Positions 1,375-43,205 of a stretch of DNA of 64,000 bases are shown in pieces. The notes below the pieces were generated by a model, which made no database searches, was not told the origin of the DNA, and saw nothing but the letters and a program-made list of their open reading frames with translations. Positions within the stretch are counted from its first letter, which is position 1. Each line of letters starts with the position of its first letter. The stretch comes from a virus: the IMG/VR virus record IMGVR_UViG_3300046467_002136, positions 50,038 to 114,037 of that record, one strand, 5' to 3'. A program made the translations under genes and the position numbers.

Positions 1375-1737
1375 TCACTTTGCTTCTCGTTCCCATTCAG
1401 TGCCGTCCTGTACAAGACCGTCACCATCACCATCTCTGGCATCAGGGTTGTATCCAGTAGCTTTAGTTGACGCGGCAGGTGGTGCCTTTTTCTTGGGGGA
1501 AGATTTTTTCGGAGAGCCGCCACTAATGAGGTTTAAAAGCCCGGCCTCTACTAATTTCTCTAAAATAGGGTTGCTTTCTGACACGCACCCGAAATGACCG
1601 ATGGGAACCGTGTGTCCTAGCTCGTCTATTTCGCGAATAGCGAGACCCATGTTGTAGACGACAACGTCGCCAGCCTTAACGTGGGCATCCGCTTTGTCGC
1701 GGTGCATGCTGTCAAACACATTAAATGAAATAGCCAT
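1375..1737 (-). CDS. Small virion-associated protein with C-terminal DGDGDG motif
   Basis: 120 aa. Ends in YNPDARDGDGDGLVQDGTEWER, the motif shared with four giant head-locus proteins. TACAAT lies 6 nt before the ATG. Confidence 0.7.
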   Translation of the reverse strand: MAISFNVFDSMHRDKADAHVKAGDVVVYNMGLAIREIDELGHTVPIGHFGCVSESNPILEKLVEAGLLNLISGGSPKKSSPKKKAPPAASTKATGYNPDARDGDGDGLVQDGTEWEREAK

Positions 1738-1751
1738 ACCTTGATTGTACC

Positions 1752-2012
1752 TTATCCTTTGTGAAGCATATGTCCAATAGCGTCAAACTGGGCAATAACC
1801 TCTAAATGATCTGCAGCGAGTGCTCCAGAAATTAATTCTGTGTTGAGACACATCATATTACCTAATGGTTCTATTCTGTGACCACAACAACTACAAGTCT
1901 CAATTGTGTGTTGTGCTTTACTATGAACAACAATGCAGTTGGATCTTTCATAATCCATAGATATGGCATCAGCTGCACCACGCGGAACGGTTTGGCATAA
2001 ACAGCAACTCAT
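1752..2012 (-). CDS. Hypothetical Cys/His-rich protein
   Basis: 86 aa ORF coupled by an ATGA overlap to the upstream gene. Confidence 0.5.
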   Translation of the reverse strand: MSCCLCQTVPRGAADAISMDYERSNCIVVHSKAQHTIETCSCCGHRIEPLGNMMCLNTELISGALAADHLEVIAQFDAIGHMLHKG

Positions 2013-2668
2013 TCAGACGAACCTCCGGTAGTTGTGTATCCAAGGTTTGTTGGCAAATCAAGAGAGGTATCGCCGACACCTACATTCTTGACACCGATCT
2101 GGATGCCCTCTTCTTTGACCGTGCCGAGCTTGGTTCTGGAAACAACTTCATTGATGCCCATGGTGTAGCCGATATACGAACCAGCCATGACTCGATCACC
2201 TTTTACTAGTGTCAGGTCAGAAAACTCTTCACGCATCGTCGATTCGTCGATTTCTACTTTCCATGTGTCTCGCGCGTCTGTTGCTTTAAGACAGGGTCGA
2301 TCAAGAAGGGCAGCTCTAGTCACGGTTGTTAACCGATCGCGCATATAGGTCACAGCCTCAGAACCATTTGCTTTGGCCCAAATATAAGTACGCATTGTGT
2401 AATTAACTCGATACTCGGGTTCTGATGGTGTATCTGATGACCAGCCAAGTCTTTCCATATTTGCAGTCGATATGGCGACGGTAATAATCATTGGCCAAGC
2501 ATCGATAGCAACTGGTTCAAAAGTCAGAAATTTCAAAGGGTCAGGCAAAGTGGCACTGTCGACACCCCAACCGTTTCTGTATTCGACAAGACGAACAGGA
2601 AGATCCGTTTTTAAGAAATCGTTTACATAGCTCTTGGCGAACTGTGCACCATGCATAAGGTCTGCCAT
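2009..2668 (-). CDS. Putative tail terminator/tail completion protein
   Basis: Position between the neck genes and the sheath, and typical size (219 aa). Function inferred from synteny. Confidence 0.55.
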   Translation of the reverse strand: MADLMHGAQFAKSYVNDFLKTDLPVRLVEYRNGWGVDSATLPDPLKFLTFEPVAIDAWPMIITVAISTANMERLGWSSDTPSEPEYRVNYTMRTYIWAKANGSEAVTYMRDRLTTVTRAALLDRPCLKATDARDTWKVEIDESTMREEFSDLTLVKGDRVMAGSYIGYTMGINEVVSRTKLGTVKEEGIQIGVKNVGVGDTSLDLPTNLGYTTTGGSSE

Positions 2669-3183
2669 TAGAGACTACCTTCTAATGCTTCGCGGCCTTC
2701 CGACATGTAGTCAACGGCCCATTTGCCCCAGCGGATATGAGCCTCATACGGTTCAAAAATAATTTGCCGCTTCGGCATCTTGCTCGTTCCCATTTGATGA
2801 AATTTTGCCCATTCGATATCTGTTCCAAAAACTGCTCGTTTGGCATGAATCTCGTTTGGATTTCCCCTCAAGCTCGACAAACTATTAAATAACCGACCCG
2901 TCTGTATGAGTGTCGTAGCTCCAGGAAAGCGAGCTGCTTTCCACGAGCCATACTGGGCGTCCAAAGGTGCCCAACCCCCTACGGGTAGTCCATTTGACGT
3001 GAAGTTTTTTGCCCAGTGCTGTTCTAGATCATCACGAATGCGTTCGAAAACTGGACCAAAGTCTCTGGCACGTCGTTGTACACCATTGATTTCTCGTTTG
3101 AGAGGTTGGGTATTGAACTTGGTGTCAAACTCAATTTGAACACCTTTTGCCCGCCGCGCTCTTTGGAGTGTTCGAAATGCCAT
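2668..3183 (-). CDS. Virion morphogenesis / tail completion protein (Mu gpG / P2 gpS-like)
   Basis: WAPL...LIQTGRLFNSL...FGTDIEWAKFHQMGTSKMPKR motif. The likely start is MAFRTL at 3183, just after the upstream stop. Confidence 0.75.
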   Translation of the reverse strand: MAFRTLQRARRAKGVQIEFDTKFNTQPLKREINGVQRRARDFGPVFERIRDDLEQHWAKNFTSNGLPVGGWAPLDAQYGSWKAARFPGATTLIQTGRLFNSLSSLRGNPNEIHAKRAVFGTDIEWAKFHQMGTSKMPKRQIIFEPYEAHIRWGKWAVDYMSEGREALEGSL

Positions 3184-3184
3184 G

Positions 3185-3820
3185 TTAAGCCACCCGAATT
3201 CGGCGATGTCGTTTGACCGCCAATAACTCCCTATCTGTAAACCCTGTTTCCATAGGGCCGATATTTCGAGGTTCGAGATCTTTGATGCCGACAACATCGT
3301 CGTGCATGTTCTGCATCTCTCTCGAAGCTGCCCTAAGAATCATCAACCTGAAAGTAGGAATACTGGCACCGGCAAGACCGGCATTATAGGTAACTGTCAA
3401 CTTGTCGTTTGCGCCGCCACGATAAACATCTACGCCGTACCGACGTGCAACATATTCAGTTCCGGCAGTCAAAGTCTCGGCGGCACTTCCGGGAGTTACA
3501 GGAGTAAGAACGATACTCGCAATCGAGTTAACAGGGCTCTCTCGTAAATATAGTGTTGCTGGAGGATCTGTATACGAAAGAATGCCGCTTGTGTTCGAGT
3601 CGAGTTTGTTATCGTAGAAGAATGAAGTTTCAGGCATGCCCAAATGATTCGAATCGAGAATGTAATCCTCGGTAAAATTGGCTGCTTCAATCTTGCGCCC
3701 TAAAAAAGTTTCTAGTTCTGATTGAAGACCGCTGAGAATAATGTCAGCAGCGTCTTGTTGACGTAAACTGAACTCAATATCCATGTAGGTTTTAAGATTG
3801 GCACGAGTTACTAGAGCCAT
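3185..3820 (-). CDS. Head-tail connector/adaptor protein
   Basis: MALVTRANLKTYM N-terminus and TVTYNAG motif of gp6/gp15-like adaptors. Synteny and a GGAG RBS support it. Confidence 0.7.
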   Translation of the reverse strand: MALVTRANLKTYMDIEFSLRQQDAADIILSGLQSELETFLGRKIEAANFTEDYILDSNHLGMPETSFFYDNKLDSNTSGILSYTDPPATLYLRESPVNSIASIVLTPVTPGSAAETLTAGTEYVARRYGVDVYRGGANDKLTVTYNAGLAGASIPTFRLMILRAASREMQNMHDDVVGIKDLEPRNIGPMETGFTDRELLAVKRHRRIRVA

Positions 3821-3832
3821 GGTGGCAGGCTC

Positions 3833-4012: not shown

Positions 4013-4087
4013 ATAACGGCACCTTCCTAGATGGAATCTAGTTCTAGTGTAGCGCACTAGGCCCTTACACTATATACCCGTTAATTG

Positions 4088-4654
4088 TTACCTATCGGCG
4101 TTAGGAGGTTTTTCTGTTGCGACTTCTTTTTTGTCGACAGTTCCGGGCGGAGCTTCCACTGGAACCCATGCCATCGAATAACGATGATTCGGAACTTTTC
4201 GGTGCTTAATGATCGAGCCATCCAGCATCAATTCTAATTCATCGCCCTTCATACAAAAACGAGCCACGAAATCTTCTACCGAAAACGCCTTAGATCTTTT
4301 CAGTTGTTTTACAATTCGAGATAGTTTATGAGCAACCATGTTCCCACGACCACGATTCAATTGAATGTGTAAGGCCATAGCCTCAGTTTCGCCACAATCA
4401 ATCACATGAACAGGTACGCCATCAGCAAACCGTTCTGACAGGTGTTTATTACCCCTGATTGCTCGCAGCCGCTGAGAGCCGTCAATTACGTTCATGCCGT
4501 CCTTCTGAACAACAAGTGGGGAAAGCACCCCATAATCCATTAGGGCCGCTGTCAGGACCAACAAATCCGGTCTAAGGATATATGTGGCATTCCACTCTGG
4601 AATATTGAGCTCCTCGTAATCCCGAACCCACATCGTGTATTGCTCTGCACTCAT
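4088..4654 (-). CDS. ParB/Srx-like protein (IbrB-like)
   Basis: WNA...YGVLSPLVV...VIDGSQRL...IQLNRGRG motifs. Directly follows the IbrA-like gene. Confidence 0.7.
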   Translation of the reverse strand: MSAEQYTMWVRDYEELNIPEWNATYILRPDLLVLTAALMDYGVLSPLVVQKDGMNVIDGSQRLRAIRGNKHLSERFADGVPVHVIDCGETEAMALHIQLNRGRGNMVAHKLSRIVKQLKRSKAFSVEDFVARFCMKGDELELMLDGSIIKHRKVPNHRYSMAWVPVEAPPGTVDKKEVATEKPPNADR

Positions 4655-9167: not shown

Positions 9168-9169
9168 TT

Positions 9170-11512: not shown

Positions 11513-11547
11513 AACAACTCCGGTTAGTAGGGGGTATCGCTATTACT

Positions 11548-13110: not shown

Positions 13111-13112
13111 CA

Positions 13113-15205: not shown

Positions 15206-18200
15206 ATGCCAAATGAACTGCTTGATGACATTCAATTTAAAGCCCGAAACGGTGCTCAGATCAGCGTTGACAGTGCCCAGGGGATTGTCGAATGTTTTGT
15301 TTCTGGCATAGGCAACAAAGACAGCGTTGGCGACATCGTTCTCCCTGGCGCCTTCAATGAAAGTCTAAAAAGAAGAAAGCCCAGAGTGGTCTGGGGACAT
15401 AGTTGGAACGACCCCATCGGGAAGGTTCTGGAAATCTATGAGGTCTCCAATGCGGACCCTCGACTTCCGCCGAAAATGAAGACTGCCGGAATCGGCGGTC
15501 TCTTCGCAAAAGTCCAGTTCAATTTGGCCGCAGAAAAGGGACGGGAAGCATTCGCTAACGTCGCCTTCTTTGGAGAAGAACAGGAATGGTCAATCGGTTA
15601 TAAGACCCTTCAAGCCACTTTTGACCCAGTTAAACAGGCCAATTTGCTCAAAGAGGTCGAACTTTATGAAGTAAGCCCTGTACTACATGGTGCCAACCAG
15701 CTAACAGGCACGATTTCTGTCAAGGACGGAGAATACGGTGCCTGCGGAACTGACGGTTGTGAATGTGGCACAAAAAGTCACATTGCTTCAGAACCAGATA
15801 TTCAGGTCGAAGCAGAGGAAGCTTTCATTTTCGAAAAGGGTCAGATGATGGGGCGAGTCCCCATGCAGATGATTATCATTCCAATGCCCAAGAAACCAGA
15901 TAGCGACCCCCACGACGCCGATAGCGACATTTGGGCTCGCGGTGAGGCTGGTCCTATTGACATGGAAGCCCGCATGGGGCTAGCACGAGAAATTCACGGG
16001 CGAACGAAGGTACCGATCAAAATCATTGAGGCCACCGAGAACATGGTGGTGTTCCTCAGAAAGATGGTGGATGGCACTACTCGTATGTACCGGATGCCGT
16101 ACCACAAGACGGATTCTGGACAATACACGTTTGGGAAACCGGCACGGGTCAAGCCCCAAACGGTTTATACACCGGTTCAACCGAACATGCCGCCCGTCGG
16201 CCCAATGAGTCATAAACCGAATCATTATGTCAGTCCGATTCAAGGAAAAGAAACTATAGAAGAAGCTAAATCTGATTATCTGATTTCCTGTACGTTGGAC
16301 AACATTTTTGAATTCAAAGATACGCTTCAACCAATTTTCGATTATTACGAAGTGACAGTGACCCCTAGCGTTAGTGGGTTGTTATGTAGTGATTATCCGT
16401 CTGGATTCGAGGACGCAGCAGATACGGCTATCAAAGCTCTAGGTGGAAGACTCGGGCGAGGTGGTGGCCTGGGAAAAGGCCGTAGGGCTGGGAGAGCCCT
16501 CGCCGCAACGTTCGACCCAAAAGCTTGGGATGGTGATGGTGACGGAATAGTTCAAGAAGGTACGCCTTTTCAGCGTCCTTCTATTCCCGGCATTAACACA
16601 AATTGGCCCGGCGATCCCAAAACCAGAGTAAAACCCGACGATTATCCTGACGACAGTGCCCAAGTTAGAGATGCACGGAAGCCTCGTCGTGACCCGAATC
16701 GCATGCGTCCGGGCAAAGGACCTGCTCGTCGTCGTGGCGTAATCGATGCAAGGTGGGCGGCAGGTCTGCGCTCGATTAGTCCAAGTAAGGCTGTCAATGC
16801 TTCTCTAGATAAGACCTATCAGGAGTTGGTAGATGAGGGGCTTTTCAAGTACCCAACCAAGCCGCATGTGGCTGGTAAACCCATTGCGGTAGCACATGGT
16901 GCACCGGACCTCGCCAAGTTGGAAGAAATTGTAGAGAAGGGCTGGAGACGGGAAGGGGGGTACGAGCAAAGACGTATTTATTTCTTTCCCGAAGGACATG
17001 AAAGCTATATGGATTGGGAAGGCGATTACGCATGGGCTCCAGAGGACCCTGTCGTTGATGCAGGAGTCACGGCACAGGTAACTCCCAAAAAGCCGATCAC
17101 TATTTTCCACGAAGATACGCATGGCTCCGTCAACGCGCAGATTGCAAAGCAGTTGGGTATCTCTGAATCAGAACTCAAGTCCACCCTGATGGAACAATCC
17201 GAGCTGGTGCCGGGAACGTCAGAGGTCGCAGATACTGCGAGGGCAGCGAAGCCAGCGTGGCCCGACGACCATCGGTCGCCACTCAGCTTACACAGGGCGT
17301 TTGGTGTCGACCTATTTGCAGATTACACAGACAACAAAAACGACGGAGGTAATGGCCATACCTTGCGCGGCAATATGGGTTCAGAAATAATCGTTATGGA
17401 TAAAGACATCATCGAAGTCGTCGGTGTGCGGCAAACCGGCTGGAACGAAGACCAGATGGTATTCCACGGTGGTCGACGCTTATACCGGAGTCGCAACTGG
17501 GAACAGGGTCGGGATCGTGAGGTTCTTGATGAAGACAAGTTCCAAGAATGGAGATCGCGCACGAATGAACTCGCTTCTTCCGGTATGCGTTCACGTTCAG
17601 GGGGGAGTTCTGGAGATTGGGAAGACTTAAAATCACAACTTCCATCGCAAGCTATTAGAAATATGTCTGTTAAGGAACGTAAAGGCCGACTTGCGGATCT
17701 GGATAAGAAAATTGATGTTTTAGAACATGACATGGACGAGATGGGATCGCTCGACCCTGAATATAACGAAATGAAACAACGTTTATCGCAGTTGGATTCA
17801 GAACGAACAAAGCATCTGATTTCTGCGGCAATTGATAATTGGGAAGGTGGACAAAAAAGTTTTGTTCGATTGCCCGTCGACTCTAAGGGTGTTGAACTTG
17901 AGTTAACACAAGATGAGATCGATTCACTTCGTTCCCATATAAAAGCACTGATTGGTAAAAGCAAAAACAACAAAGTAAATGGCATTTTAGCAAAATATGA
18001 TCAAAGACTTGTTGGTAATAAAGATGGTGTAGTAAAAATCCCTAAAGAGCAATTTAGCGACCTTATTAAAGCGTGGGACCAGATTTCTCCGCCTGCCCAA
18101 AGTCGGATGCATCCCAAAACGGGTCGTGACATACTCGAATTTGCTGCACTTTCACCAACCCAAAAATTTAGGTCGTCGCAACTCGATCTGCCAGACAATA

Positions 18201-22309: not shown

Positions 22310-25300
22310 ATGACCGAGTTCTCTCCAAAAAAAAGAACCTACCTCTCAGCAAGAATCCGTCGTAGACGACGAGATTTAGAAGCTGCTGGGCTGGACTTTC
22401 TTGAACGTAGAAACGTTCTTGCTGCACAGCCAACCCTTAACGCTCAAATTGTAGTTAAGGCGCTTGATGGCAGTATCGGAGATTCTCCTGAAAAGGAAAA
22501 AGATAAGTCCAAGAAGCGCACAGCTGGTTCAGGGGTTAAAGAGATAGAGCCCGAGGTTCGTTACGACCCTAAAGGTGTTCGTGATCCTGGACAAGTTTTC
22601 AAACTGCATGTCACTGCTCGTGACCTCAAAACAGGTGAAGACAATTTCGGGTGGATTGATCCGCCCGAGGCAGTGCCGAAAGAAAAACAGCGCTCCAGTA
22701 TGGCTGACGCTATGCAGTGGCGGGCAACTCGGCCTCAGATTCGGATACGGACTTACGATCAGGACCCAAGAACGGGTCAACCAATCGTTGAGACTGAGGA
22801 AGAAATTCAGGTCAAAGGTCTCGGTAGAACCCTCAAAGACACCCTTCCGGGCCAAAGTCTTGGGGGGCGTGCGGCCAGCGGCCTTGGTCTCATTGTTGAC
22901 GCTTTAGGAAAATTCCGTTGCCCACCCGGCACTCCGGCGGCCAATCAGTTCACCGACGAGTTCGGGACAAACTGTTTCTCGCCTGTAGAGATATTACGCG
23001 ACACAGTCCGGGGTCTTGTCAATAGTCTCAGATCCAGCAGAGGCCGAAGCTGGTCATTACCCGGTCGAGGCGATAGCGAAGCGGAACAGCTGAGGTCCAA
23101 TATCGCAGAGCGGCGCGCAGCCGCCGGTAAAGCCGGACAGCTTATTGGTAATACTGCGTCGATTGAAGCAGCCTTGATTGAACGCAACACCGTTATTCAA
23201 TCTTTAATGGATCAGTACGGCATTTCAGCTGGAGACGAACTAAACGAGGATATGTGGTCATTGTTGGAAGCAATGACCGATGTAGATACCGGTGATTTCC
23301 CCGACCTGGAATGGAAAGGATTGTTCACCAGCATGTTCGGAGATGAACTCTGGGATGAAAATCTTACGATGCGTCAAAATTTGGAAAAGATGCGTGCGGC
23401 AGTTCGCGAAGACGTATTCAGTTTCATGGGTGCACAAACCAAAACGGGTGCACAAGCAATCCGGGATTCGTATAACCATAGAGACCCCAAAGCGATGGCA
23501 ATGGTTGACGGTCTTGTTGGTCGACACGAATCAGCGATGCGAGGATTCTTAGGTTCGACTCTTCACGAGTTCGGAGACGATCCGAGAGCCATGAGCGGTC
23601 TCAAAAAGATTTCTTTCCGAGCCTACAACCCAGATATTGACGACTTCCAAAGCTATTGGGGTACCGAAGGGGAATGTATTCCCCTCTGGGAAGGTACCGG
23701 CACCGGGATGGCCACCAAACTCCAATTCAACGCTACTGCCATTGCCCTGCGACCGTTTCAAGAGGGTGGACTGACTCATGAGGGTCCGGACGGTCGACCA
23801 AAACTCGTACAGGTTGATGCTGGAGGCGCCTTTTCGGCATCAGTAACAGACGCCGAGAAATGGGCGGCAATCGCAGACTTTCTTGCACATACTGAAAAAA
23901 TGGAATACTGGCATAAACAATATGCAAATGACCTTACTGCCTCTGCTCACGGTGGAAGCCTCGAAGCCTTTTCCATGCATGTCGGATATCACGAACTTGC
24001 ACACGTTAAACAGTATCAACAGATCGCACAACGAGTATTAGAAACCTATGAGCGTGATGGTCAATTCTCGATTTACAAAAGAGACGGCACTGGACTCGAA
24101 TTATTAACTGCGAATCCTTCTGAATGGACAAACGAACAGTTCGCTATGGCCGTTGCCTCCACATTCCAAGATGCGCTTCCACCCGGCACCACTACCGACT
24201 TTCCCCCGATGGACATGGTCCAATTTGAGGGAAGCATGCTGCATCTTCTCGCAGGACAATATTACCAAGACCTGGTTCAAGGTTTCCTGCAAGCAACCTC
24301 TGGTGGTTATGCAGAAGATATTACTCCGGGTCAATATGTGAGTCCTTTGGACGCCAGAGGACTACCTGTTCACAATTCGGCGAAAGCCCACCTCAACCTG
24401 TTGTTTCTAGAGGGAACAGCTGAACTAGCGGCTCTTAAACGAACCGGAGGCATCGCAGGCGACGAACTCAATGAAGTTCTTGATTGGATGGACGCAGACA
24501 TAGCAGACGTTGTCTACGGGATTCCAGAGGTTGACGTTCCGTTTAAACCCGGTTCCATTGTTTCCGACACTGACATGGGTGAAGCGCCTTGGGACACTCC
24601 TCTCGAACCGGGCGAAGTTATGACGCCATCAGGCATCATTATTCCGACTAGTGCTGTGAAAAAGATAGAAGCAGCAGCGGCGAGGAAGAGGCAAGAACGC
24701 CAACTAACTACGGAGAAGCGAAAGCTCGAAACTGCTAGACGATTGCGGCATCGAACAGAAATACACAGTTGGGGCAGCGGCGGGGACGGTGAAATCAAAA
24801 CTGCGTCTGATGGAACAAAATATGTTTGGATCGGAGCATTAAGTGGTGAGGGCGAATGGCAGGTGCTATTTGATGACCTGTTTGAACCAGCATTTCTGGA
24901 GGAGCTAGAAGGTGTCACCCCACCCGAAGTGGACTATGACCTTCCACCCGGCATGCGCTCTGGCGGTATGCGCTCTAGGCGAGAATTGGGCCAATTCGAC
25001 AACGGACCCAGAGTCGGAAAGTTTTCCGGAGAAACACACGAAGAACCAGACGGCTCAGTCTGGGAGTTTCGCCCTACTCTTCGGGATCGTCCAGAAAAAG
25101 GTGGTTTCTGGCGTGATATGACAGACCCTGCAAACCGACGAGAAATAGCCGAACGCGCCACACGCAGACGCCAATTGGAAGCTCAAGAGGGTCGAAGCAT
25201 GGGACGACTTGCTCGCCCGGGGGCTGGAAGCGAATGGGAAAACATTGTCCGGAGGGGCGATGGCGGGATGCGTTCCACAAGGGCCACTGTGGGACAAAGT

Positions 25301-29041: not shown

Positions 29042-32000
29042 TGAAAGCTATTCATGTTGCCAATACGGGTGATAGCCGAATTTATTATCTATTGGAATCA
29101 GATAACGACTCTACCGGTGTAGTGGTCAAACGTAATTCTCCTCCAACATTCGTAAACTTTTTTGCATATGTCTCCAAAAAGCCGCAGATTCAACGTCTTA
29201 TGGATTCAGATTTTCATAAATTTCTTTGGACTGGCAACAAGGGGAGTTTGAAACCTCGCTGGGAACACGTCTTCATTGACCGAGTTGCCGAACCGGTTGA
29301 TTTGTTGGTTGGCGTAAACGTGATCAGCAAATTTAAAACAGACGACGGGCCTAATCGTGTCCGACAGATGGAAGAGAAAGCCAATCGAGCTATCGAATAT
29401 CGATCGCTGGTATCCGCAGGGCTTAACGAAAAAGCTTTTGCTAGGAGTGTCGGCAGAATGGCCGGTCGTGCAGCAACGGGAGCCGTCAGAGGTTTCCGTA
29501 GAGGAGTTCGATTTGATCGACATGCTCGTGACGGTGATTTAGATGGCTTTCTTCAGGAGGGCACAGAGTGGGCTAGAGCTGCCACGCCGTCACGAACAGA
29601 TCTCACTACGCAGGAAACGGTTGGATATAAGCAACCAGGACGACCACGGTTTATGAAAGATAAGCCGCCAGATCCCACAACTTTGTTTGATGCTTCACGG
29701 GAAGAGCTTCGGGCTGCCAAGGGTCGTTATTACCGCTGGAAGAAGGCAGAAGCGGGAGCATCCGCACACGGCGTCGGTCTTGTCGACCCCGAAGAACTCT
29801 TGCAAAGTTGGATCGATTTAGAAAATGAATTGAGTGAAGCGTTTCTTGATGGGCGTCCCATACGAACTACTGACGATTTTCGAGAAGTTGCAGCTCAACT
29901 TCACAGCGGATTCGGACCCAACCTCAATCAAAAGATGAAAATTGTTTACGATTCGAACGGAGATCCGGTAGACCGTAAATATGACATATCGGGGGGCAGC
30001 TATTTCGACTTGATTACCCCCGATCGGAAAGGCGACGAAGAGTTATCTCTGTATGAAAGATATACGGCATTAGCTGTCATGAGGGGATTAAGAGATAACC
30101 CTGATCTTCAAAACCACACCTTGCAAATTGCTCATGAGGACGATCTGGTCCCGAGTAATCCAGTCATCAATGGACCCAAAGGAGTTGGAGGTCAAGCGGG
30201 CGGTCTGATGGGCTGGAACTGGAAGGTCAACAAGATAGCCCTGCAACTATTGAGGGCTACTACGGGTACACGGGAAGAACGAAACAAACGGTTCTCCGAA
30301 CGCCTTGACGAAATGCTCGAAATTGACAAAGTGCCGTCTCAACGCAATCGTCACCCAAAACCGAGAATCACTATCGGCTTACGCAAAGAAAAAGATCATT
30401 CGAACCTACTTGATTTTGAAATCGGTTTAACTGCTGAATATGCTTCAAAAATGGGTCACAACACTGCCACTACTGCTCTGGTTGTCTTAGCGGCCCACCT
30501 TGACAATGTGCCCCAGAGTGAACAGGCGTCAGTTGTCAAACGAGGTAAAGCAATTTTTGGAGCCACGATCGCAACACACGAGTTCTCCGGACATGGAAGT
30601 CACACTTCAAATATAAAATCATTTGCAGATAAAGATGCAGGTGGTGATCACAACGCATTAAAACGGGCGTTTGAACGAATAAAAGAACATCTAGGAAAGA
30701 ATCCAATCGCTGACAAAACCGCGCTGGATCTCGATAGCGAACAGATAGACAAAACCGGCAAGGGTGGTTACAACTTGGCTCATGGAGCATTCGGCCCAAA
30801 GGCGATTGTGAGCATGGATAAAGCTTCTGCAAAATTATCAAACCAAGGTAAAGTCCGAGGCGTTCTAAGTGTCGAACCCGACACTATGGGGGTCGGACAA
30901 TGGCTGGGTTATCTCGACCAGAAGGAAAAGCCAGGTTCGAATCGAGTTGAGCGACTTCATGAATGGTTGAGGCAGCCCATCATGGATGGTGACGGCAACC
31001 CATTTACAGCCACTCCCGGACTCGCCCAGTACTTCAACGCATTGGCAGGTGAGGCTGGCCTTAGTTGGCCGGGTATCGATTTAACAATATCCCAGGGTGA
31101 AGAATTAACTCTTGCGCACGTTTTGTACGGGATGTCTCCCAGCATCAACTTCGGAGAAATTCAATTGCTTTCCGCCGAAGCCTCCAACATGGGCCTCACC
31201 AGATTGTCAGATCATCGAAAGGGTAAATACCTCAGCTACAGGCCAAGAACAGGAACTGCTTCTGGAGCGAACTGGACTGATATTACTGACAAAGCAATAT
31301 TTGTACGGGTTGGTGATGATATGAAACCATTAGATAGCATACCCAGTGGTGTGTTGGATCAAATACCCTGGTATATGAGCGTAGGCGGCGTAGAGTTATT
31401 TGATCAAGGCGTTTTACCCGCACCTACGGTACTCAGGGAACACGGAATACCTGCATTCAAATTTCCCAATACCCAAGGTTCATCGATTGACTCCTCAGGG
31501 CCGCACAGCTCGAACACGAGTTCCAGCGATCCGGTGTCGCCAGAAGATGTCGCACCGTTACTCGATGCTCATGCAGTAGTAAATCGGATTTTGGCTGATG
31601 AAAAATCTTCTATTCCAGTCACTCCACCCCCTGTCACCAATGTGCAAACTGCTTTTAAAGATCCATTCAACCCTACAGACCTAGAACAACGTGCCAACAA
31701 AAAGCGATTGAATGAGGAAGAGGTAAAAAGAAATCAAAACTATTTGGCCAAGCTTCTCAAAGTGAGATTTAATAAAATCAAAGAATCGAAAAGCGAAGTT
31801 GGCACAACAGGATTACCGATTACTGAATTAGTTTCAAATAAAAGTCCTGCACAAAGAGTCGAAATAAGACAACGATTAGTTGACCAGCTACTCGCTTCTC
31901 TCATCTATGACCACAAATTCATCGACCAAAGCCGACGTTCCAGCACCGCCCGCATCGACAAACCCCGGGGAGAAGGTGGCATAGATGCCATGAGAGATCA

Positions 32001-32806: not shown

Positions 32807-32832
32807 ACGTAAACTATTATGGGTGACTACAC

Positions 32833-33477: not shown

Positions 33478-35417
33478 ATATGGCGACTTCCTACACCTAC
33501 ACGAAGGAATTGGATTGCTGCGGCGGCTTGGAAGTGCAGGTCAAACGAACAATCTTACGAAAACTTGACGACACCATTCCTTCGGGTCTAATCCGGCATA
33601 CACGCGCATCTGACGAAATCATTGGCGAATACAAAGCCTTATCTCATAGAAATGGAAATACTCGTCAGTACGACATCAGCGTAACTACCAAAGCGGGTTT
33701 AGTCAGATCGGGCTCCCGTCTCGGGCAGGCAGCTCAGGCAGCGGGTTCGATCATCACACCTGGAAACATTTCTAGAGTTCGAAGTCCCCTACGTTCGGCT
33801 GGATGGCGGGCACTCACCCCTGGCCTCCCCGGAGGCGGACGAGGTATTCGCAAACGTGGACGGGCACACCGATGCCCAGAGGGCTACCAATACGGTGGTC
33901 GATTCACTGACAATCAACTATCCACTTGCGGCCAACAACTTTTTGATATTCCATCTGCCCTCGGTGCAACCATTGCCGCTATCCGCAGAGCCGCTGCCGG
34001 TGCACCCACGGCACCCGAAGGTGAGGTAATTCGTGGACGCCCGGGCCGAAACGTTTTACAAAGCCGTAAGCCAGACATTCCTCGCGTCGGGAACGACAAT
34101 CGCCAAGAACGTATTCGTGCTACAGGAAAAGTCATAGAAGCCATGGGTAAGCCCGACATAGACACGGCTCGGCTTGTTCGACGCGATGGCTTTCAGCTTG
34201 AACCAGTAGTTCCTCCCGCAGTATTGCGCACCATCCCCGACAACAGGGACATGGAAGGCGCCACCTACCTAATGAATCTCACATCCGTTGATGGAATGGG
34301 TGGCGAAGAGTTGGGTCTCCTCTCCAATACGGGAGTTACCAATATCTCTTACGTTCTTCCTGACGGATCTTCTCTTTCTATTGAAAAGGTTCGAGGGCTC
34401 ACAGTCGGTGAGCGTAGGAAACTGGGCCGCACTGTTAATGCTGCCATGAAAAAAGACAATTCTAAAGATCCTGCGGCCAGACTGAAATTTGTCGACGAGG
34501 AGACCGGAACGGGCATCGCATACACCGAGAACTGGGCAGGATCAGCTCGTTCCGTTGCGGATGCCCTCAAGTCCAAGCCAGGAAAAACACCCACGGTGGA
34601 AGCTGAAGCGCCCGAGGCTGAAGTGCCCGAAGGTGTTGGCGACAAAATCAGTAATGTCAGTGACGCTGTAACCCACATCAACGGTGGGGGCAGTCTCGCT
34701 GGAATTGATCCATCTATTCTCCAAGCTGCGATGCGAAAAGCGGGTAAAAAACGACCCGGAGGCATCATCGAGGTCGGCGATAACCGTTATCTTATGCAGT
34801 CTTCGAAAACCGATTTCGACCATTTGCACGTTGCTACGGCAGCGGAAATACAAAATCATCTAGGTCTGGCAGCATTCCCCCCAGCGTTTGCGGGGAAGGG
34901 TGGCAAGCGGCGCGACTACGTTCTCGCTGCTCCATCTATGGATACTGATCGAACATTCGACGATGTAGACCCAGCAGACGCGGTACGCATGCTCCTGGCT
35001 GACTTAATTCTCGGGGTCAACGATAGGCCGCCCACCGCTGTAGGAATACAAGGCGAAGCAACAGTACCGACACACATACCGTCTGCACTTGAAGATTTGG
35101 ATAAAATCAGCATACAAGAGAGAATTGAAGAAAGTATTTCTTCGATGAGACCACTTGCAGATGAAAGTATATATTCCTCGCATTATCAACAATTACGAAT
35201 AGCTCAACAGGAAGAATTCCGCAACGAACTTGAACGCCTTCTTGAAAGGGCTCGTACATTCAATTTTACTGATTATAAAGATCGCCTTTATCGTGACGGT
35301 TCTTTATCTGCAGCCGAAAAAACTCATCTAAATGTTATTCAAACAATTGTTGAAGCTCGCATCCAAACACTTGCTGCTTCCTATGACGCGATTCTTGACC
35401 GCTTGGACGGTAACTGA
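33468..35417 (+). CDS. Head-locus protein with RCPxG motif and degenerate HipA/PI3K-like C-terminal domain
   Basis: Contains HRCPEGYQYGGRFTDNQLSTC and AAEIQNHLGL..P...RMLLADLILGVNDR. Confidence 0.6.
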   Translation: MRINMATSYTYTKELDCCGGLEVQVKRTILRKLDDTIPSGLIRHTRASDEIIGEYKALSHRNGNTRQYDISVTTKAGLVRSGSRLGQAAQAAGSIITPGNISRVRSPLRSAGWRALTPGLPGGGRGIRKRGRAHRCPEGYQYGGRFTDNQLSTCGQQLFDIPSALGATIAAIRRAAAGAPTAPEGEVIRGRPGRNVLQSRKPDIPRVGNDNRQERIRATGKVIEAMGKPDIDTARLVRRDGFQLEPVVPPAVLRTIPDNRDMEGATYLMNLTSVDGMGGEELGLLSNTGVTNISYVLPDGSSLSIEKVRGLTVGERRKLGRTVNAAMKKDNSKDPAARLKFVDEETGTGIAYTENWAGSARSVADALKSKPGKTPTVEAEAPEAEVPEGVGDKISNVSDAVTHINGGGSLAGIDPSILQAAMRKAGKKRPGGIIEVGDNRYLMQSSKTDFDHLHVATAAEIQNHLGLAAFPPAFAGKGGKRRDYVLAAPSMDTDRTFDDVDPADAVRMLLADLILGVNDRPPTAVGIQGEATVPTHIPSALEDLDKISIQERIEESISSMRPLADESIYSSHYQQLRIAQQEEFRNELERLLERARTFNFTDYKDRLYRDGSLSAAEKTHLNVIQTIVEARIQTLAASYDAILDRLDGN

Positions 35418-38400
35418 TGAGACAGTTCGCTATTATCAAAGACGTTAGTTCAGACAAACTTTTTGCAATTATTGTCAAAGGTGATGATTTTACTGTCTGC
35501 CACGGGGTTCATCCTGTTGGCAAACAGTGGGCTGACAGTTACAACAAGGGTTTAACCAAATCCATTTATGACGACCTTCAGCCGGGAATTTCGGTTGGGT
35601 CGTTCGCTCCGGTAACCACAACAACGCAAGCTTTGATTGATGAGGCAATCGAAGGGAAACCCGTTCGTTTTCCTGATCACTCACAGCTTACATATGTCAA
35701 GTCAGTTAACTACAGATATGACGGAGAAATCCCCCAAGTAAAAGATGCAGGGCTATCAAATCTGACAGATAAAGATTTCTTTGTTGGGGCAGACTATAAG
35801 GGAGTAGCTTTTCGTGCCGATGCTGCAAGACTTTCACTTTTGGCCAAAGCTCGTTTAGGGCATTTTGGAACTGATTCTAAAGGTTTCAATTTTACTGAAA
35901 AGGGAACAGATCAGAAAGCTCTAAACGAAGAATTGTTTCAAACTGCTCGGGGGTCCGGCAATGTCCGTCGTGCAGCTAAAGCAGTGCTTTTAGAAAAGCA
36001 TTTAAACTTAGAGGAACATCCGGGGTATCTCGGAACAAGAGAACATTCGTCACCTATCCGTACAAAAGCCAATCGTCTTGGTCGAAGAATTGGCCGAGGA
36101 GGAGGCAGAGGTAGGGGTGGCGGAGGTATTCGCAAAATTGGACGATCGATGCAAGACCCGTTCGATCCAAAGGCTTGGGATGGAGATCATGACGGGATAG
36201 TTCAGGAGGGCACCATATGGGAACGCCCTTCAATACCGGGAGTTAACACGAATCTTCCGGGCCAACGTCGCACCCGAACAAAGCCTCGCAACTACCCAGC
36301 CGATGACGCAGACGGTGTCGAATTCAGATTGCGTAATCGTCGTGAAGAAAACCGTGCCCAAAATGAAATTCTAAGTACTCCGGTTGGAGAGGTTATTGAA
36401 GAATTCCCCGAAGCAACCGAAGCTCTCAGAAACACACTTTCAGGATTCCCTGAAGGCGATGACATCTGGGAAACTCCACTAAGAGACATCACAGATAATG
36501 GAGAATACTTCGGTGAGGATGATTTAGATCGACTTCTTGATGCTGCTGTACCACGGCGTCGAGAAGGTGCCACTGACAGCTTCTATCGCGATGAACAAGG
36601 CATGCGCTCCCAAAGAGACGCACCTCCACCTCCTCCGGTTCCCGAGCGTGAAAGTGAGCGTGATTTTGGCGACCCGCCTCCTCCCCCGCCTGTACCCGAA
36701 CGACGCGATTTACCTGAACCGCCAGAGCCTGGACCCCGAGCATCCGCTCCCGCTCCAGAGCCTCCAGAGCGGAAGCCACAATTAGTTCTACCTCACGCGG
36801 GTACGAGCCATGGGCAGATGACCCCTGAACAGCGACGAGAGCAACTCGACGCTATGGAATACGAAATCCCTGCCGCCAGAGCGAAGTCACGCCAAATGCG
36901 AGAAATCGCTCAAGAACGTAATCAAGATCTGAATTTCTTTAGGGGACGAGGCGCAGACGGGAAACGCCGAAACCGGCATCGTCCTGGCAGTGAGGCAGCA
37001 GCAGAGCGTGGTGAAAAGCCCTCAGGTATGAACGAGAACGCTTGGCATCGCAATGAAACAGAATGGCTTCAAAGACAGATCGACAGTGCCAACGAAGGCG
37101 TGTACTTTTGGGACCAAACAGATTACCAATGGTCCTTACAGCAGCAGAGTCTGCGAGAGTTTAATGCCCGTGGTGAAATGGCAGCCCCCCGGGGTATGCG
37201 TTCTGAACGATATGACATCACACAAGATGAAGCTGGCAAATGGCGTGTGATGGATACGGGCAACAGAAACATGCGGCTTCCCGAAGAATATGACAACCGC
37301 GAGGACGCTTTAAGAGAAGCGATACGAAGAGATAACCCCCGTGGTGGCATGCGATCTACGCGACCGCTTACGCCCGAGGAACGTGCTGACCACGAAGAAC
37401 GATTCGGCCCGGGAACACGAGATGGTACGCGACCGCTTACGCCCGAGGAACGTGCTGACCACGAAGAACGATTCGGCCCGGGAACACGAGATGGTACGCG
37501 ACCGCTTACGCCCGAGGAACGTGCTGACCACGAAGAACGATTCGGCATGCGTTCCTCAATTGAAGTTGGATCTGGACGCCCTAGTGGAGAACGGATCGCC
37601 AGGGCGCGGGAAGAAGTCGCCTTGTCAGCTGGACCCCAGCGGACCAGTGATGGCCGTCTGTATGACGAACGAACTCACGGAGAACTAGTAGATGCCTTCA
37701 CAGGTGCAGGATTGTCTATCTCTGAAGCAGAAGCAGAAGCAGATCGGAGAATGCAACATCGATTTGGTGACAGGTGGCTGCAACACCCCTTAAACCGTGA
37801 TCGCATATCTGGTCGAGGCGGCATGCGCTCGGAAAGCGGAGGCGAATCTCAACAAGATCGAATCGATCGCCGAGAACGAGGCGAGTTCGACGAAATGACC
37901 CGAGTCGGGCGAGCCGCCAGAGAAACTCATGAAGAGCCAGACGGTTCAGTTTATGAATTCCGTCCTACTCTTCACGACAAACCTGAACGGGGTGGCAATT
38001 GGATTGACATTACAGACCCCGGCCAAAGATCTGAAATGGCTAGGCGTGCTACGCAAAGGCGTCAACACGAAGCCCAAACGGGCACGAGCATGGGGCGGTT
38101 AGCGCGACCGGGTGCTGGCAGTGAATGGGATCGAACTACGAGAGGTGGAATGCGCTCTAGGACGCGTGATGCTTCAGTAGATCGTGCCTCTCAATTGCAA
38201 GGCATGCGCTCAGGCGGCAGACGACGCCGAGGCCAAGCTCAACCTGGACTTGATCGTCACTCAGACATTGACGGTCAGATTTGGGAAACTCTTACCGACG
38301 CTGAAAGAGCACATGTCGGAACGGCGATTGATACAGAAATGCGTAGACGCATGCACGGACTCGCATGGAACGACATGGACGGCATAGATCCTCGCAAGCC

Positions 38401-40147: not shown

Positions 40148-40458
40148 TTACTCCAGAAAATCATAAGGAATATCACATAATGCTCTCAACGCTTCTGCGG
40201 TACCCCCCGTTCTCCACTGAAGACGACGAAAACGGCGACGAATTGGATTACATCGCTGGTAAAGAACTAATGGCCTACCACGACGAGGTTATCGCGCCAG
40301 CATCCAAAGGCGGAAACCTAGATTGGGAATTAGAGGGTGAACCCTTCGAAGAGTTCAGAGAAAAATGGAAAGACGAACTTGAAGAGGCTGAACTTTACCA
40401 ATCCAGACATGGTGACGATTTCGCTGCCGCCGCAAAAGCTGCCAGCGGCGATGAATAA
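40144..40458 (+). CDS. Small acidic protein (candidate immunity protein)
   Basis: 104 aa, very D/E-rich, with an ATGA overlap to the ART-like gene. Confidence 0.65.
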   Translation: MITPENHKEYHIMLSTLLRYPPFSTEDDENGDELDYIAGKELMAYHDEVIAPASKGGNLDWELEGEPFEEFREKWKDELEEAELYQSRHGDDFAAAAKAASGDE

Positions 40459-40460
40459 CG

Positions 40461-43205
40461 ATGCCCGAGGCGCGCACGGACTCCGAAACTGCCAAGAAAG
40501 CACAGGCTCTAAGAGAGGCTGCTGAACTCGGCTGTACTGGTGCGCACCGTCATCCCGATGGAACATGGATGGCGTGCAGCACAATGCAAGAATATGAGCG
40601 TCTCACCAATGGCGAAAAAGAAAAAAGCTCTTTAGATCTCATTGAGGAAACCCAGAAGATCCGTTCCCAAAAGGGTCGCAAGCGCAAGAAGAAAACTAAG
40701 CGCCAATGGGACAAGTTAAGGGAGCGAGGTGTCACTGGAATTGACACTCTGTCTGGTGGTGGACTCGTATCCGGTAAGGGTATGACTTTTCGACCCGTAG
40801 ACGGTGACACAGACGTTTTCGACAACATCAACCAAGCGCGTCGTAGAGCACGCCAATTGGGATGTATCGGTGTATCTAGACGTACTTCCCGTAGTGGACG
40901 TAGGGTTTGGACCCCGTGCACCAACATGACGGACTATGCGCGCGCCACTGGTAGTACGGCTCTTGGAAGGCGCTACCAGCAAAGACTGGAACGTCAACGA
41001 ATACGAAATATTGTTCGTGAAGAGCTATCTAAAATGAAACGACGTAAAAAGCGTTTATTTGAAGAAGTGTACGAAGCCAAAGGTATCGGTCGCCGTATCG
41101 GACGTGCTGCACGGTTTGACCCGAAGGCTTGGGATGGCGATCATGACATGATTGTCCAAGAGGGCACCCCATTTGAACGTCCTGCCATTCCTGGAATTAA
41201 TACCAATCTTCCGGGGAGAAAAAAAAGAGGTATGCGCTCTGTTTGGGATGGGAAACCCGGCACAGTTCAACGCCCAGAACCTAAAGCAAAACCAAAACCC
41301 GTAACCGACGAAGTCAGAATGGCGTCTCTCGGTAAGGAAATTGACAAGTTGCGGATAGGGAAACTTAACCCTCTGCTTCAAGAACTCAAAAAAGCCCAAA
41401 AAGAAGGCGACCACGCGGGAGTTCTTCGCATCAGAAACTTGATGGCGCCACTTCAACAAGAAGAATCACGTCTTCGTGAAGAACTCGGCACCGCCATGGG
41501 TAAAAGCAGATCGGATCTATCGTTAGGAGCTTCTGCAAATGGTGGCGTGCGTTCCCGCCGTCAAATCGATCATATGCTTCAGACTCCGCAGCAAAATATT
41601 GCCGATATGGAAGCTGACATAGATGAGTATTTCGCCTTTTTGGATGAACATAGTCGAATTGATTTTCAGAGACATTCCATCTATCGACCTGGCGATAAAC
41701 GTATTCGGAAAATAGGAGAACCGTCAACAGACCAATATTCGAGTGGAGAAGAGTATGGAGCTTTACCTGAGATAGACCAAGACATTATCGAAGAGCATGA
41801 CGATCTTTGGGGAAAGGTCGAGTGGTGGGCGAACTTTATTGAACAGTCAAGGATTGAACGCAACGACTTGACAACCGAACTTAGAGAAAAAGAAGACGCG
41901 TTAGATAGCGCAACGGAAAGCGCTCATAGGCCATATCACGCAGATACTAGAGATTTCTTAAAAGCCATCGACGGTGACGAAGATAGAGACACCTTTATTG
42001 AGCGCACATACGGCCCCTTCGAAACCAACCAGAGAGATCTGGAATACGGTGGCAGTAGTGAACCTGAGTGGCGTGAAGATCAATGGGGAAGGGATACCTT
42101 CAACCAGTACACCGACTACTGGGATGATTTGATTCGGATACGAGAAGAAACTTCATATATACAATATGAAATAAACTCGATTCAGGATCAGATTGATAAA
42201 TACCATGGGAACGGTACTGAATTCGCCAGAGACGATTATCGTAAAGCTCTAGAAGCCAAGCTGTCTAAAAAGACCAGCTCAGAAGTGATCAAGGGTGAGC
42301 TCGCTGAAGGGCGAATTGCTCTTGATCCTACTCAGGGTTTGCGTTCGCGTAGAGATCGTTTAAGCCCTAGTGAAAAAGAGTGGCTTAAGATGCTTCAAGA
42401 TAATCCTGGTCTTTGGGCTGAAGCCCCAGCAAGCGTGCGAGCGATTGCTTCAGACAAGATGAAACGTGAAGCACTCCAAATACGCAACGATTTTTCAGGT
42501 GGGATGCGAAGCGGACGCTTTGGTAGCGGCGGAAAAGCAATGGGCCAGCGAATACTTGCCAAGGTCAAGCCAGAACACAGAAACAAGGAAGATAGAACCC
42601 TTTACTTCATTGGCGGCACAACGGGTTCCGGTAAATCCACTTTAGTAAAAAATGGCTCCTTCGGCGTTCCGAACGATACTGAAGCTGCCCACATAGATCC
42701 GGATTTCATCAAAACGGGCTTAGAGGGCTGGGACCCCAAAAACGCCACCGCGTTTCACGGAGCATCCGTTACAGCAACTCGCGGCGTTCTAGATAGTGCT
42801 GCCAACGCCAAGATGGACGTTGTTGTACAAGGCACAGGGAAACGAGCCGAACACCTCCATACTGCCAGATCGCGCGGCTATTCGACTGTTGGGCATTTTG
42901 TTTATGTCCCCGGCAACGAGGCGAATAAAAGAATTGCTCAACGAACAGCGGCTGGTGGGCCTGACATCCCAACCGGTTTTGGTACCCAAATCGCTGGAGA
43001 ACTAAAAGGCCATGTAAGCAGACAAATAACACAAGGCTTATATGACGAGTTCTTCTTATGGGACAATACGGGAGATACACCAAGATTGATAGCATTCAGA
43101 AATAGGGATGGGCATTTCGAAATCAATAGCAGAACTGAGTTCGATGCTTTCTTTAGTGAGACCGGCGCAAAGTATGTAGAAAGGTATTGGAAAGATAACC
43201 AATGA
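40461..43205 (+). CDS. GMRS-segmented polyprotein with C-terminal zeta-toxin-like P-loop kinase
   Basis: Two LGCxG...WxxC repeats (DUF3721-like) and the DGDHD motif. The kinase part reads GGTTGSGKST...HIDPDFIK...DVVVQGTG...RIAQR...GGPDIP...WDNT. Confidence 0.85.
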   Translation: MPEARTDSETAKKAQALREAAELGCTGAHRHPDGTWMACSTMQEYERLTNGEKEKSSLDLIEETQKIRSQKGRKRKKKTKRQWDKLRERGVTGIDTLSGGGLVSGKGMTFRPVDGDTDVFDNINQARRRARQLGCIGVSRRTSRSGRRVWTPCTNMTDYARATGSTALGRRYQQRLERQRIRNIVREELSKMKRRKKRLFEEVYEAKGIGRRIGRAARFDPKAWDGDHDMIVQEGTPFERPAIPGINTNLPGRKKRGMRSVWDGKPGTVQRPEPKAKPKPVTDEVRMASLGKEIDKLRIGKLNPLLQELKKAQKEGDHAGVLRIRNLMAPLQQEESRLREELGTAMGKSRSDLSLGASANGGVRSRRQIDHMLQTPQQNIADMEADIDEYFAFLDEHSRIDFQRHSIYRPGDKRIRKIGEPSTDQYSSGEEYGALPEIDQDIIEEHDDLWGKVEWWANFIEQSRIERNDLTTELREKEDALDSATESAHRPYHADTRDFLKAIDGDEDRDTFIERTYGPFETNQRDLEYGGSSEPEWREDQWGRDTFNQYTDYWDDLIRIREETSYIQYEINSIQDQIDKYHGNGTEFARDDYRKALEAKLSKKTSSEVIKGELAEGRIALDPTQGLRSRRDRLSPSEKEWLKMLQDNPGLWAEAPASVRAIASDKMKREALQIRNDFSGGMRSGRFGSGGKAMGQRILAKVKPEHRNKEDRTLYFIGGTTGSGKSTLVKNGSFGVPNDTEAAHIDPDFIKTGLEGWDPKNATAFHGASVTATRGVLDSAANAKMDVVVQGTGKRAEHLHTARSRGYSTVGHFVYVPGNEANKRIAQRTAAGGPDIPTGFGTQIAGELKGHVSRQITQGLYDEFFLWDNTGDTPRLIAFRNRDGHFEINSRTEFDAFFSETGAKYVERYWKDNQ

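Follow-up and report, generated by a model that had tools for sequence, protein, structure and literature searches.

Why should five otherwise unrelated proteins of a single phage carry the same short peptide? The question is raised by the final 64 kb (below, the window) of a 114-kb linear IMG/VR virus record, IMGVR_UViG_3300046467_002136, which is about 76% complete and comes from an uncultured lake phage. The peptide, here called the tag, is about 33 residues long and follows the pattern [FY]-[DN]-P-x-A-x-D-G-D-x-D-[GM]-x-[VL]-Q-[ED]-G-T-x-[WF]-x-R. A sequence-only reading had proposed that it docks its carriers to the capsid interior. We found the tag to be a shared module with a Ca2+-loop core, tightly coupled to an element that resembles the scaffold/shell junction of the capsid protein; that it serves as a common docking handle or capsid address has, judged from the sequences, a probability of roughly 40%.

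All five copies listed in the sequence-only reading lie in frame within long open reading frames, one in the small protein A and one in each of the large carriers B, D, E, and F (Table 1). A search of the whole 114-kb record returned exactly these five and no sixth, and the core expression D.D.D[GM]..Q[ED]GT matched five times in the six-frame translation versus 0.0 times in 100 shuffles. When the N-terminal parts of D and E were compared by BLASTP, the tag alone aligned. The extension RP[SA]IPG[IV]NTN[LW]PG is found in B, E, and F only, the copies of D and A being shorter and more divergent. A Gly/Arg-rich linker is present ahead of the tag in all four large carriers, as had been noted, and the accompanying claim that the tag precedes all the modules bounded by GMRS sites turned out to be correct for B, E, and F. 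Carrier D is devoid of G[MLV]RS sites, and protein C has seven GMRS sites and no tag of this kind, so the rule describes B, E, and F only. In the window giants, it is just the first junction that bears a tag, the later GMRS junctions having none, and 24 GMRS-type sites of the window have no tag nearby.

The search was then extended to related phages, where the motif recurs in hundreds of proteins. A scan of IMG/VR with an alignment-derived pattern gave at least 408 confirmed relatives, and a 33-position profile run against 1.84 billion cluster representatives detected 914 proteins at E<=1e-3 (each standing for a protein cluster at 50% identity) and 175 at E<=1e-10. Essentially all of the detected clusters are on uncultured phage contigs with one shared HK97-type capsid protein. 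Since many carriers are homologous to one another, the protein counts overstate the number of independent events. Ten related genome records were searched, each with one to six tagged proteins. Five of these genomes have four to six, ranging from 135 to 3222 amino acids (aa) as open frames and mostly encoded between the portal and capsid genes, with a homologue of the small protein A in one of the five; the five further records have one to three tags. Wherever a tag-bearing genome record yielded a capsid gene, its product was 64 to 95% identical to the capsid protein of the window, which has more than 2,600 cluster-level homologues. Among 185,579 prokaryote species genomes, there were six tag loci, all on contigs of metagenome-assembled genomes (MAGs), and two of the six are head modules with the order portal, protease, giants, and capsid. 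By gene context, the motif therefore does not occur mainly in nonvirion proteins, a finding that would have told against the docking proposal, and it is nearly absent from cellular genomes. No tag was found in Brevibacterium phage Cantare, the best portal relative (41%), or in Actinomycetia phage DSL-LC01. PHROG 7924, a family of unknown function, matches the tag of protein A, for which the ESM Atlas returned nothing.

The composition of the tag points to its chemistry. In an alignment of 22 tags, A8, D10, D12, D14, Q18, G20, T21, and R25 are invariant, and F4, P6, G11, G15, V17, P26, and P29 are nearly so. The core D-G-D-x-D-G-[ILMF]-V-Q-[ED] thus combines three Asp residues (positions 1, 3, and 5) with Gly at position 6, a hydrophobic residue at 7/8, and an acidic one at 10. 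The same ligand pattern defines the DxDxDGxxCE loop of the bacterial Excalibur domain (Asp1, Asp3, Asp5, Gly6, Glu10): the three Asp residues never vary, G15 is kept in at least 90% of the tags, and E or D follows four residues on. In the nuclear magnetic resonance structure of CbpL from S. pneumoniae (5J8T), such a loop holds Ca2+ through D58, D60, D62, E67, and the carbonyl of V64 and superposes on the calmodulin EF loop, and the domain is unfolded without Ca2+ (PMC5137146). The tag keeps the D-x-D-x-D-G-hydrophobic-x-x-E decapeptide of Excalibur (PF05901), with its four side-chain ligand positions and Gly, and is likewise a small stand-alone module (about 35 to 45 aa in Excalibur) on modular proteins. 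It differs in having flanks of its own, F-D-P-x-A before and G-T-x-[FW]-E-R-P after, and in being found on phage proteins made in the cytoplasm, whereas Excalibur sits on secreted bacterial proteins. The two cysteines that form the Excalibur disulfide are missing, an invariant Gln replacing the loop Cys and no Cys being present upstream. The PF05901 model matched just 1 of the 22 tags, at E=0.056, and a Pfam search of the whole carriers gave no Excalibur match. For these reasons, we place the tag outside the Excalibur family. In the opposite direction, a genuine Excalibur protein (Pfam E=1.7e-37) was picked up by the tag profile, each of its repeats at about 1e-4. Taken together, the sequences suggest that the tag is probably a small Ca2+-binding mini-domain, a cysteine-less cousin of the Excalibur domain, and Ca2+ binding is a well-founded inference.

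Structure prediction with AlphaFold2 (AF2) on a 70-aa stretch and an alignment of 51 sequences gave a predicted local distance difference test score (pLDDT) of 78 to 87 over the tag. In the model, a beta-bridge of two residues closes the loop, and there is a helix in the basic linker before the tag and none after it. Structure searches with this 70-aa model (Foldseek against pdb; VIA wide) found no match, and a profile search against PDB sequences found only a chance match of 15 residues. A canonical EF-hand, whose 12-residue loop ends in a bidentate Glu and lies between two helices, was rejected, as position 12 is an invariant Thr and the predicted helix precedes the loop without a second one following it. 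A dockerin, which binds a cohesin through two tandem, helix-bearing Ca2+ segments of about 22 aa, was rejected as well: the tag is mostly single copy, no helix follows the loop, and no cohesin-like gene was found. With dockerins and EF-hand pairs, the tag shares the DxDxDG Ca2+ loop, position 8 of which is hydrophobic, and in small phage proteins also an arrangement in tandem pairs. In one such protein, with two tags and a PG_binding_1 domain, AF2 on an alignment of eight rows gave the tags a pLDDT below 50, which says nothing about tag-tag pairing. The original assignment of DxDxDG to a Ca2+-binding loop type therefore stands as far as the Excalibur ligand pattern goes, the loop being neither a canonical EF-hand nor a Pfam Excalibur domain.

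At least 90% of the aligned tags have a D-P dipeptide immediately ahead of the loop. The bacterial protein FrpC processes itself at an Asp-Pro bond within a Ca2+-dependent module of about 170 aa, and the tag could in principle be a self-cleaving module of this "clip-and-link" kind. We consider this very improbable, because D-P is not invariant: many good copies have D-R, D-A, K-A, K-P, T-P, or D-W in its place, among them window copy 3 and those of the tandem-tag proteins. The tag module, moreover, has about 33 aa, against about 170 aa in FrpC.

When 248 tags were aligned together with their upstream sequences, a second conserved element appeared. K-[AGS]-[LI]-G lies 5 to 45 residues upstream of 121 of the 203 internal tags (60%), mostly at a distance of 15 to 35 aa. 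When control windows were taken in these proteins, 0.3% had the element. The element is often preceded by E/T-x and often doubled (...ETKSL....EFKAIG....), and after it comes a Gly/Arg-rich basic stretch that ends in R-A-x(3)-F-D-P. In a divergent subfamily, the loop starts 4 to 6 residues after K-A-A. In carrier F, the first GMRS (aa 257) follows the tag by 5 residues, which places putative sites on both sides of the tag and delimits a piece of about 52 residues.

The major capsid protein of the window supplies the comparison for this element. Its N-terminal domain of about 116 residues is helical and charged, and S-x-E-F-K-[SA]-L occupies residues 112 to 118, with S112, E114, F115, K116, and L118 invariant in 121 homologues. 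Within aa 103 to 118 (43735-43782), an invariant or nearly invariant [KR]-[ST]-[LIV]-G stands 13 residues before that motif. The 103-residue scaffolding domain of HK97 is cut off at K103/S104 by the same protease family (PMC10275583). From its sequence, the motif at aa 103 to 118 of the capsid protein is likely a maturation cleavage site. Since K/[AGS][LI] (the slash marks the cut) resembles this junction of scaffold and shell, and since HK97 is cut at K103/S104, the element ahead of the tags is, by analogy, a candidate maturation-protease site. G-[MLV]-R/S may be a second form of site, with a hydrophobic P2, a basic P1, and a small P1' residue; the capsid junction motif resembles the G-M-R-S separators in outline. 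We infer that site, basic linker, and tag form a cassette.

Such tight coupling, with its limited spacing, could also mean that the tag is a processing signal and no address, namely, an exosite to which the prohead protease binds before cutting the nearby K/[AGS][LI] and GMR/S bonds. The sites on both sides of the tag in F would suit this explanation, and so would the strong conservation of the protease domain, 79 to 80% over aa 1 to 173. It appears unlikely nevertheless, as about a quarter of the tags are N-terminal without an upstream site, the capsid protein has a site and no tag, the 24 GMRS-type sites mentioned above have no tag nearby, and a second, cysteine-type tag (see below) can occupy the same slot.

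We then asked what kinds of protein carry the tag. Peptidase_S78 (PF04586) occurs in 24 of the 71 listed carriers. One portal fusion of 3015 aa (P0150) joins Phage_portal and a weak, sub-threshold Phage_Mu_F match to five tag-headed modules, among them a GNAT acetyltransferase; a further carrier with a weak MuF-like match was found, one IMG/VR relative of which has no tag. The modules of the carriers include Zeta_toxin, ADPrib_exo_Tox, ART-PolyVal, PI3_PI4_kinase/HipA_2, NUDIX plus intein, GNAT, DUF3626, and sigma-70 region 4/helix-turn-helix, and one carrier has an RNase_T-like exonuclease module (below the Pfam cut-off). A 1720-aa protein (P0157) combines three tags, an intein (Hint plus a LAGLIDADG homing endonuclease), and a NUDIX domain. 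Small proteins carry two tandem tags ahead of a PG_binding_1 domain; their IMG/VR relatives have no tags, with acidic or proline-rich N-termini instead, and the context of those relatives is therefore uninformative about the tag. Standalone tagged effectors are also found at other structural or late positions, outside the head module. In the gene order Neck1, phrog_5178, X, and sheath, X is protein A here and an N-tagged, exonuclease-like protein of 1174 aa elsewhere (L092:8486-12010). The slot between phrog_5178 and sheath is variable, an untagged 98-aa protein occupying it in phage Cantare. The carriers, though not the tag as such, have the traits of polyvalent proteins: they are giant, contain several effector domains, have virion genes as neighbours, and are fused to portal, MuF, or peptidase domains. 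They are polyvalent cargo proteins and, since their genes lie in structural regions, are presumably packaged. As a previously undescribed marker of phage passenger proteins, the tag is real.

By position, 63 of the 248 tags are N-terminal (within 70 aa of the protein start), 181 are internal, and 4 are C-terminal. Where a protein carries at least two tags, its N-terminus (M-x(5-10)-E-P-Y-D-P...) can be aligned with the sequence that a cut at the internal K/A site would expose. These positions are consistent with a role of the tag as an ejection or handling leader. It would then form the new N-terminus of a released module and act as a Ca2+ switch that folds in the Ca2+-rich virion, unfolds in the host cytoplasm with its low Ca2+, and governs retention in the head, entry into the portal or tail channel, or refolding in the host. 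Polyproteins with up to five tags, one per module, would fit such a leader, including the portal- and protease-fused carriers that need no address, and the Excalibur domain does fold with Ca2+ only (PMC5137146). We regard this possibility as doubtful, given that some predicted fragments consist of the tag alone (aa 208 to 259 of F and the C-terminal tags of P0091 and P0080), that the tag of protein A is C-terminal, so that a K-A cut would part it from the rest, and that the window giants are tagged at the first junction and not at the later GMRS junctions.

In the reading that we prefer, the tag would be a common handle that holds passengers on a conserved component within the head or prohead. 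The cassette would comprise a capsid-junction-like K-[AGS]-[LI]-G as the target of the S78 prohead protease, a Gly/Arg-rich and basic helix whose last residues are R-A-x(3)-F-D-P, and a D-G-D-x-D-G-x-V-Q-E-G-T-x-[FW]-E-R-P loop. It stands at the start of the passenger modules in the polyvalent proteins of uncultured aquatic phages, which together form a very large clade, and cutting at the flanking sites would later free the passengers. The motif, its distribution, its carriers, and its coupling to K-[AGS]-[LI]-G are observed, whereas Ca2+ binding, cleavage, packaging, and docking are all predictions from sequence and context. The address model explains why one peptide is found on unrelated effectors, including stand-alone ones away from the head genes, and it explains the flanking sites, through which the tag of F would be excised as a piece of about 52 residues and that of A clipped from the C-terminus. 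It is possible, and we propose it tentatively, that the cassette is a natural, portable load-and-release system in which whatever protein bears the tag enters the HK97-type prohead and is freed there by the maturation protease; a Ca2+ switch could then couple the state of the tag to the passage from virion to cytoplasm. A host-targeting signal was also considered and set aside, the effector types being too diverse for one host address.

Several observations weigh against a simple capsid address. The tag is kept directly behind the protease unit in B and many of its homologues, where an address seems redundant, and the portal-fused polyprotein has five tags, each behind a cleavage-site-like element, although its encapsidation is already assured. 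Shuffling of units made of site, tag, and effector could explain this redundancy, at the price of an auxiliary assumption. Heads assemble in the cytoplasm, where free Ca2+ is sub-micromolar; because an Excalibur-like fold is unfolded without Ca2+, the tag would be expected to be unfolded during assembly. A 98%-complete relative (G009), whose capsid protein is 70% identical, has a tag-less protease of 561 aa and no tag of the Ca2+-loop type on its head-region giants. Its sole such tag forms the N-terminus of a 679-aa protein (L122:7238-9277, minus strand) that is encoded beside primase and helicase genes and contains DRHxxN/DNG kinase-like motifs (read by eye). Cultured phages gave no example of the tag: when 50,697 phage records were searched by tblastn with tag peptides, with protein A, and with a two-tag protein, the outcome was nothing or noise at E=9, within the limits set by the BLAST low-complexity filter and the short queries.

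Candidate receptors can be named by their conservation across the clade. These are the capsid protein (about 70%), the portal (about 60% where the whole gene lies within the fetched stretch), the C-terminal half of protein H (about 60%), the 214-aa protein s214 (49 to 68%), protein I (42 to 46%), and the protease domain (up to 79 to 80% over aa 1 to 173); none of these candidates was confirmed. When the capsid protein and the 70-aa tag region were modelled as a complex, the score was 0.00, which speaks neither for nor against binding. Of the proposed capsid-interior docking peptide, then, the shared module, the Ca-loop core, and the cargo carriers encoded in structural regions have stood, while the redundancy in protease and portal fusions and the untagged giants of the relative count against a simple address.

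Noteworthy here is the observation that the slot of the Ca2+-loop tag (below, the Ca-type tag) can be filled by a second type, [RK]-C-P-x-G-x(5-8)-[FI]-T-D-x(5)-C. This Cys-type tag is present in proteins C and I, in their homologues in related genomes, and in two head-region giants of 2041 and 1416 aa from the relative poor in Ca-type tags; its positions in relatives include L123:16751, L124:2880, L098:13083, L099:3602, and L101. A K-G element and a Gly/Arg linker precede it in C, in the homologues of C, and in both giants, and a Gly/Arg-rich stretch alone does so in I and its homologues. In the giants, it follows K-G-A-R-A-[IL]-[FW]-D-P-[KS], the lead-in of the Ca-type tag. An F-like protein of 1082 aa from the same relative has neither type. 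Since the Cys-type tag fills the same slot, most of the large head-region proteins examined in the clade have one tag or the other, and by its sequence, the Cys-type tag may stand in functionally for the Ca-type.

A metal-type alternative with two cysteines at the same position is also what one might expect of a structural spacer, i.e., a knot stabilised by Ca2+ or Mg2+ that insulates modules or buffers divalent cations near DNA, has no partner, and spread by shuffling. That no partner was found, that the tag has very different neighbours (including the tandem pair ahead of PG_binding_1 domains), that the adjoining linker is strongly basic, and that protein A carries SPKK-type repeats would all agree with such a role. 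The degree of conservation makes it quite unlikely: the tag is far more conserved than its carriers, with eight invariant positions across proteins that otherwise do not align, and conservation beyond the metal ligands (A8, Q18, G20, T21, R25, and P26) exceeds the needs of a spacer. We retain the docking handle as the preferred reading.

Table 1. Features of the window discussed in the text (nucleotide positions within the window; a slash in a motif marks the putative cut)
Feature	Position	Strand	Remarks
Tail sheath	2-1231	-	phrog_23
Protein A	1375-1737	-	120 aa; directly upstream of the tail-sheath gene
Tag copy 1 (YNPDARDGDGDGLVQDGTEWEREAK)	1378..1452	-	C-terminus of protein A; phrog_7924 matches aa 74-118 only
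Lys of STK-ATG, protein A	1462..1464	-	ahead of tag copy 1 by 5 residues; may be a cleavage site, by analogy
phrog_5178 protein	2009-2668	-	
Neck1	2668-3297	-	
Portal	13113-15107	+	Phage_portal
Carrier B	15206-20437	+	1743 aa; prohead protease Peptidase_S78 at aa 24-169, then about 1330 aa of passenger modules
K410-A-L-G element, carrier B	16433..16444	+	putative maturation-protease site K/A
Gly/Arg-rich basic linker, carrier B	16445..16510	+	AF2 helix over second half
Tag copy 2 with RPSIPGINTNWPG extension	16511..16612	+	carrier B, from F436
Protein H	20483-22285	+	600 aa, pI 4.1
Protein C	22310-29041	+	2243 aa
Cys-type tag (RCPPG..FTD..C), protein C	22916..22975	+	behind VKGLG and Gly/Arg linker
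Carrier D	29041-32394	+	1117 aa; without Pfam or PHROG family, without GMRS site
K131-A-F-A element, carrier D	29431..29442	+	
Tag copy 3 (FDRHARDGDLDGFLQEGTEWAR)	29512..29577	+	carrier D, from F158; most divergent among the large carriers
214-aa protein (s214)	32833-33477	+	conserved; two small genes lie between D and I
Protein I	33468-35417	+	649 aa, conserved
Cys-type tag (RCPEG..FTD..C), protein I	33870..33929	+	
Carrier E	35417-40147	+	1576 aa; seven GMRS sites, all after the tag
K217-A-N-R element, carrier E	36065..36076	+	
Tag copy 4 with RPSIPGVNTNLPG extension	36161..36262	+	carrier E, from F249
104-aa gene between E and F		+	
Carrier F	40461-43205	+	914 aa; N-terminal DUF3721, C-terminal Zeta_toxin/AAA_33 kinase-like domain
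K207-G-I-G element, carrier F	41079..41090	+	
Tag copy 5	41115..41216	+	carrier F, from F219
HK97-type major capsid protein	43429-44763	+	phrog_10; PF05065 in homologues
S-A-E-F-K-A-L, major capsid protein	43762..43782	+	end of delta-like N-terminal domain; compared with the K/[AS]L elements

Among the neighbours of the carriers, protein H had no family match. It contains Cys clusters and long poly-Glu and Ala/Pro runs, and its C-terminal half is 58 to 61% identical across the clade; it could be scaffold-like, or a partner that binds the basic Gly/Arg linkers. The 214-aa protein matches phrog_6439 over about 40 residues, and the same region gave a weak match (E 6.5e-4) at the N-terminus of a tagged giant of 1670 aa (L142:6060-11072). 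The genes of the minus strand are ordered large terminase, recombination genes, ParB-like and PAPS-reductase-like genes, Neck1, phrog_5178, protein A, and tail sheath. The set between the terminase and recombination genes and the neck genes (4088-7767, minus strand) may serve DNA modification; besides two genes of the ParB-like and one of the PAPS-reductase-like kind, it encodes a protein with a short 2OG-Fe(II)-oxygenase-like match. A WhiB gene is located at 45973-46353, and some capsid homologues were binned with Acidimicrobiia and Pontimonas MAGs; an actinobacterial host fits both.

Short peptides that load proteins into a particle are known from other systems. The capsid targeting sequence of the T4 internal proteins has about 10 residues, is strictly N-terminal, contains no metal loop, and is removed at L-x-E, and the head proteins of phiKZ and SPN3US carry propeptides. 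Like these, the tag is a short peptide common to otherwise unrelated proteins, most of them of the head region, and adjoins putative prohead-protease sites. It differs from the T4 signal in its length of about 33 residues and in being N-terminal, internal, C-terminal, or repeated, and the packaging of its carriers is presumed from gene context. The C-terminal encapsidation region of the HK97 prohead protease, reportedly described by Duda, Oh, and Hendrix in 2013, the cargo-loading peptides of encapsulins, and the N-terminal packing signals of effectors of Photorhabdus virulence cassettes and other extracellular contractile injection systems (PVC/eCIS) embody the same concept, a movable short peptide that loads an HK97-fold shell or a contractile particle. 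None of them is similar to the tag in sequence, and the protease of a close relative is without the tag. The portal, protease, and weakly MuF-like fusions of the tag can be likened to the MuF polymorphic toxins that Jamet et al. are said to have described in 2017.

The carriers are of the type described as polyvalent proteins by Iyer et al. 2017 (PMC5512222): they are likewise giant multidomain effectors encoded in head neighbourhoods, with ART-PolyVal, Zeta-toxin, kinase, and nuclease modules. A term search of the article found no mention of calcium, Excalibur, or EF-hand. Polyvalent, head-packaged effectors with MuF, portal, or protease fusions are thus known already, as is the chemistry of the DxDxDG/Excalibur loop. 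Relative to Pfam, to PHROG annotation, and to the term search of that article, three things are new: a phage-specific module that lacks cysteines and has conserved flanks of its own, the tight association of this module with a site like the capsid junction, and the cysteine-type tag that parallels it.

To our knowledge, the choice of cargo for tailed-phage heads is understood in a few model phages only (T4, P22, and phiKZ-like phages). The clade described here offers a handle that is defined by sequence: one 33-residue module with a protease-site-like element on hundreds of different passengers. Even if the tag were purely structural, it would provide a new domain definition, absent from Pfam and represented in PHROG by family 7924 without an assigned function, and a practical marker for polyvalent proteins of the cargo type. 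If it is a loading or handling signal, the set of delivered effectors could be read from the sequence of any genome of the clade (more than 2,600 capsid clusters), a minimal tag for foreign cargo would be at hand, and the chemistry of the Ca2+ loop would hint at how passengers are held and let go. Should the load-and-release reading be true, the cassette would be the tailed-phage counterpart of the encapsulin cargo-loading peptides, and one of the most abundant clades of freshwater phages would use it to deliver swappable sets of effectors.

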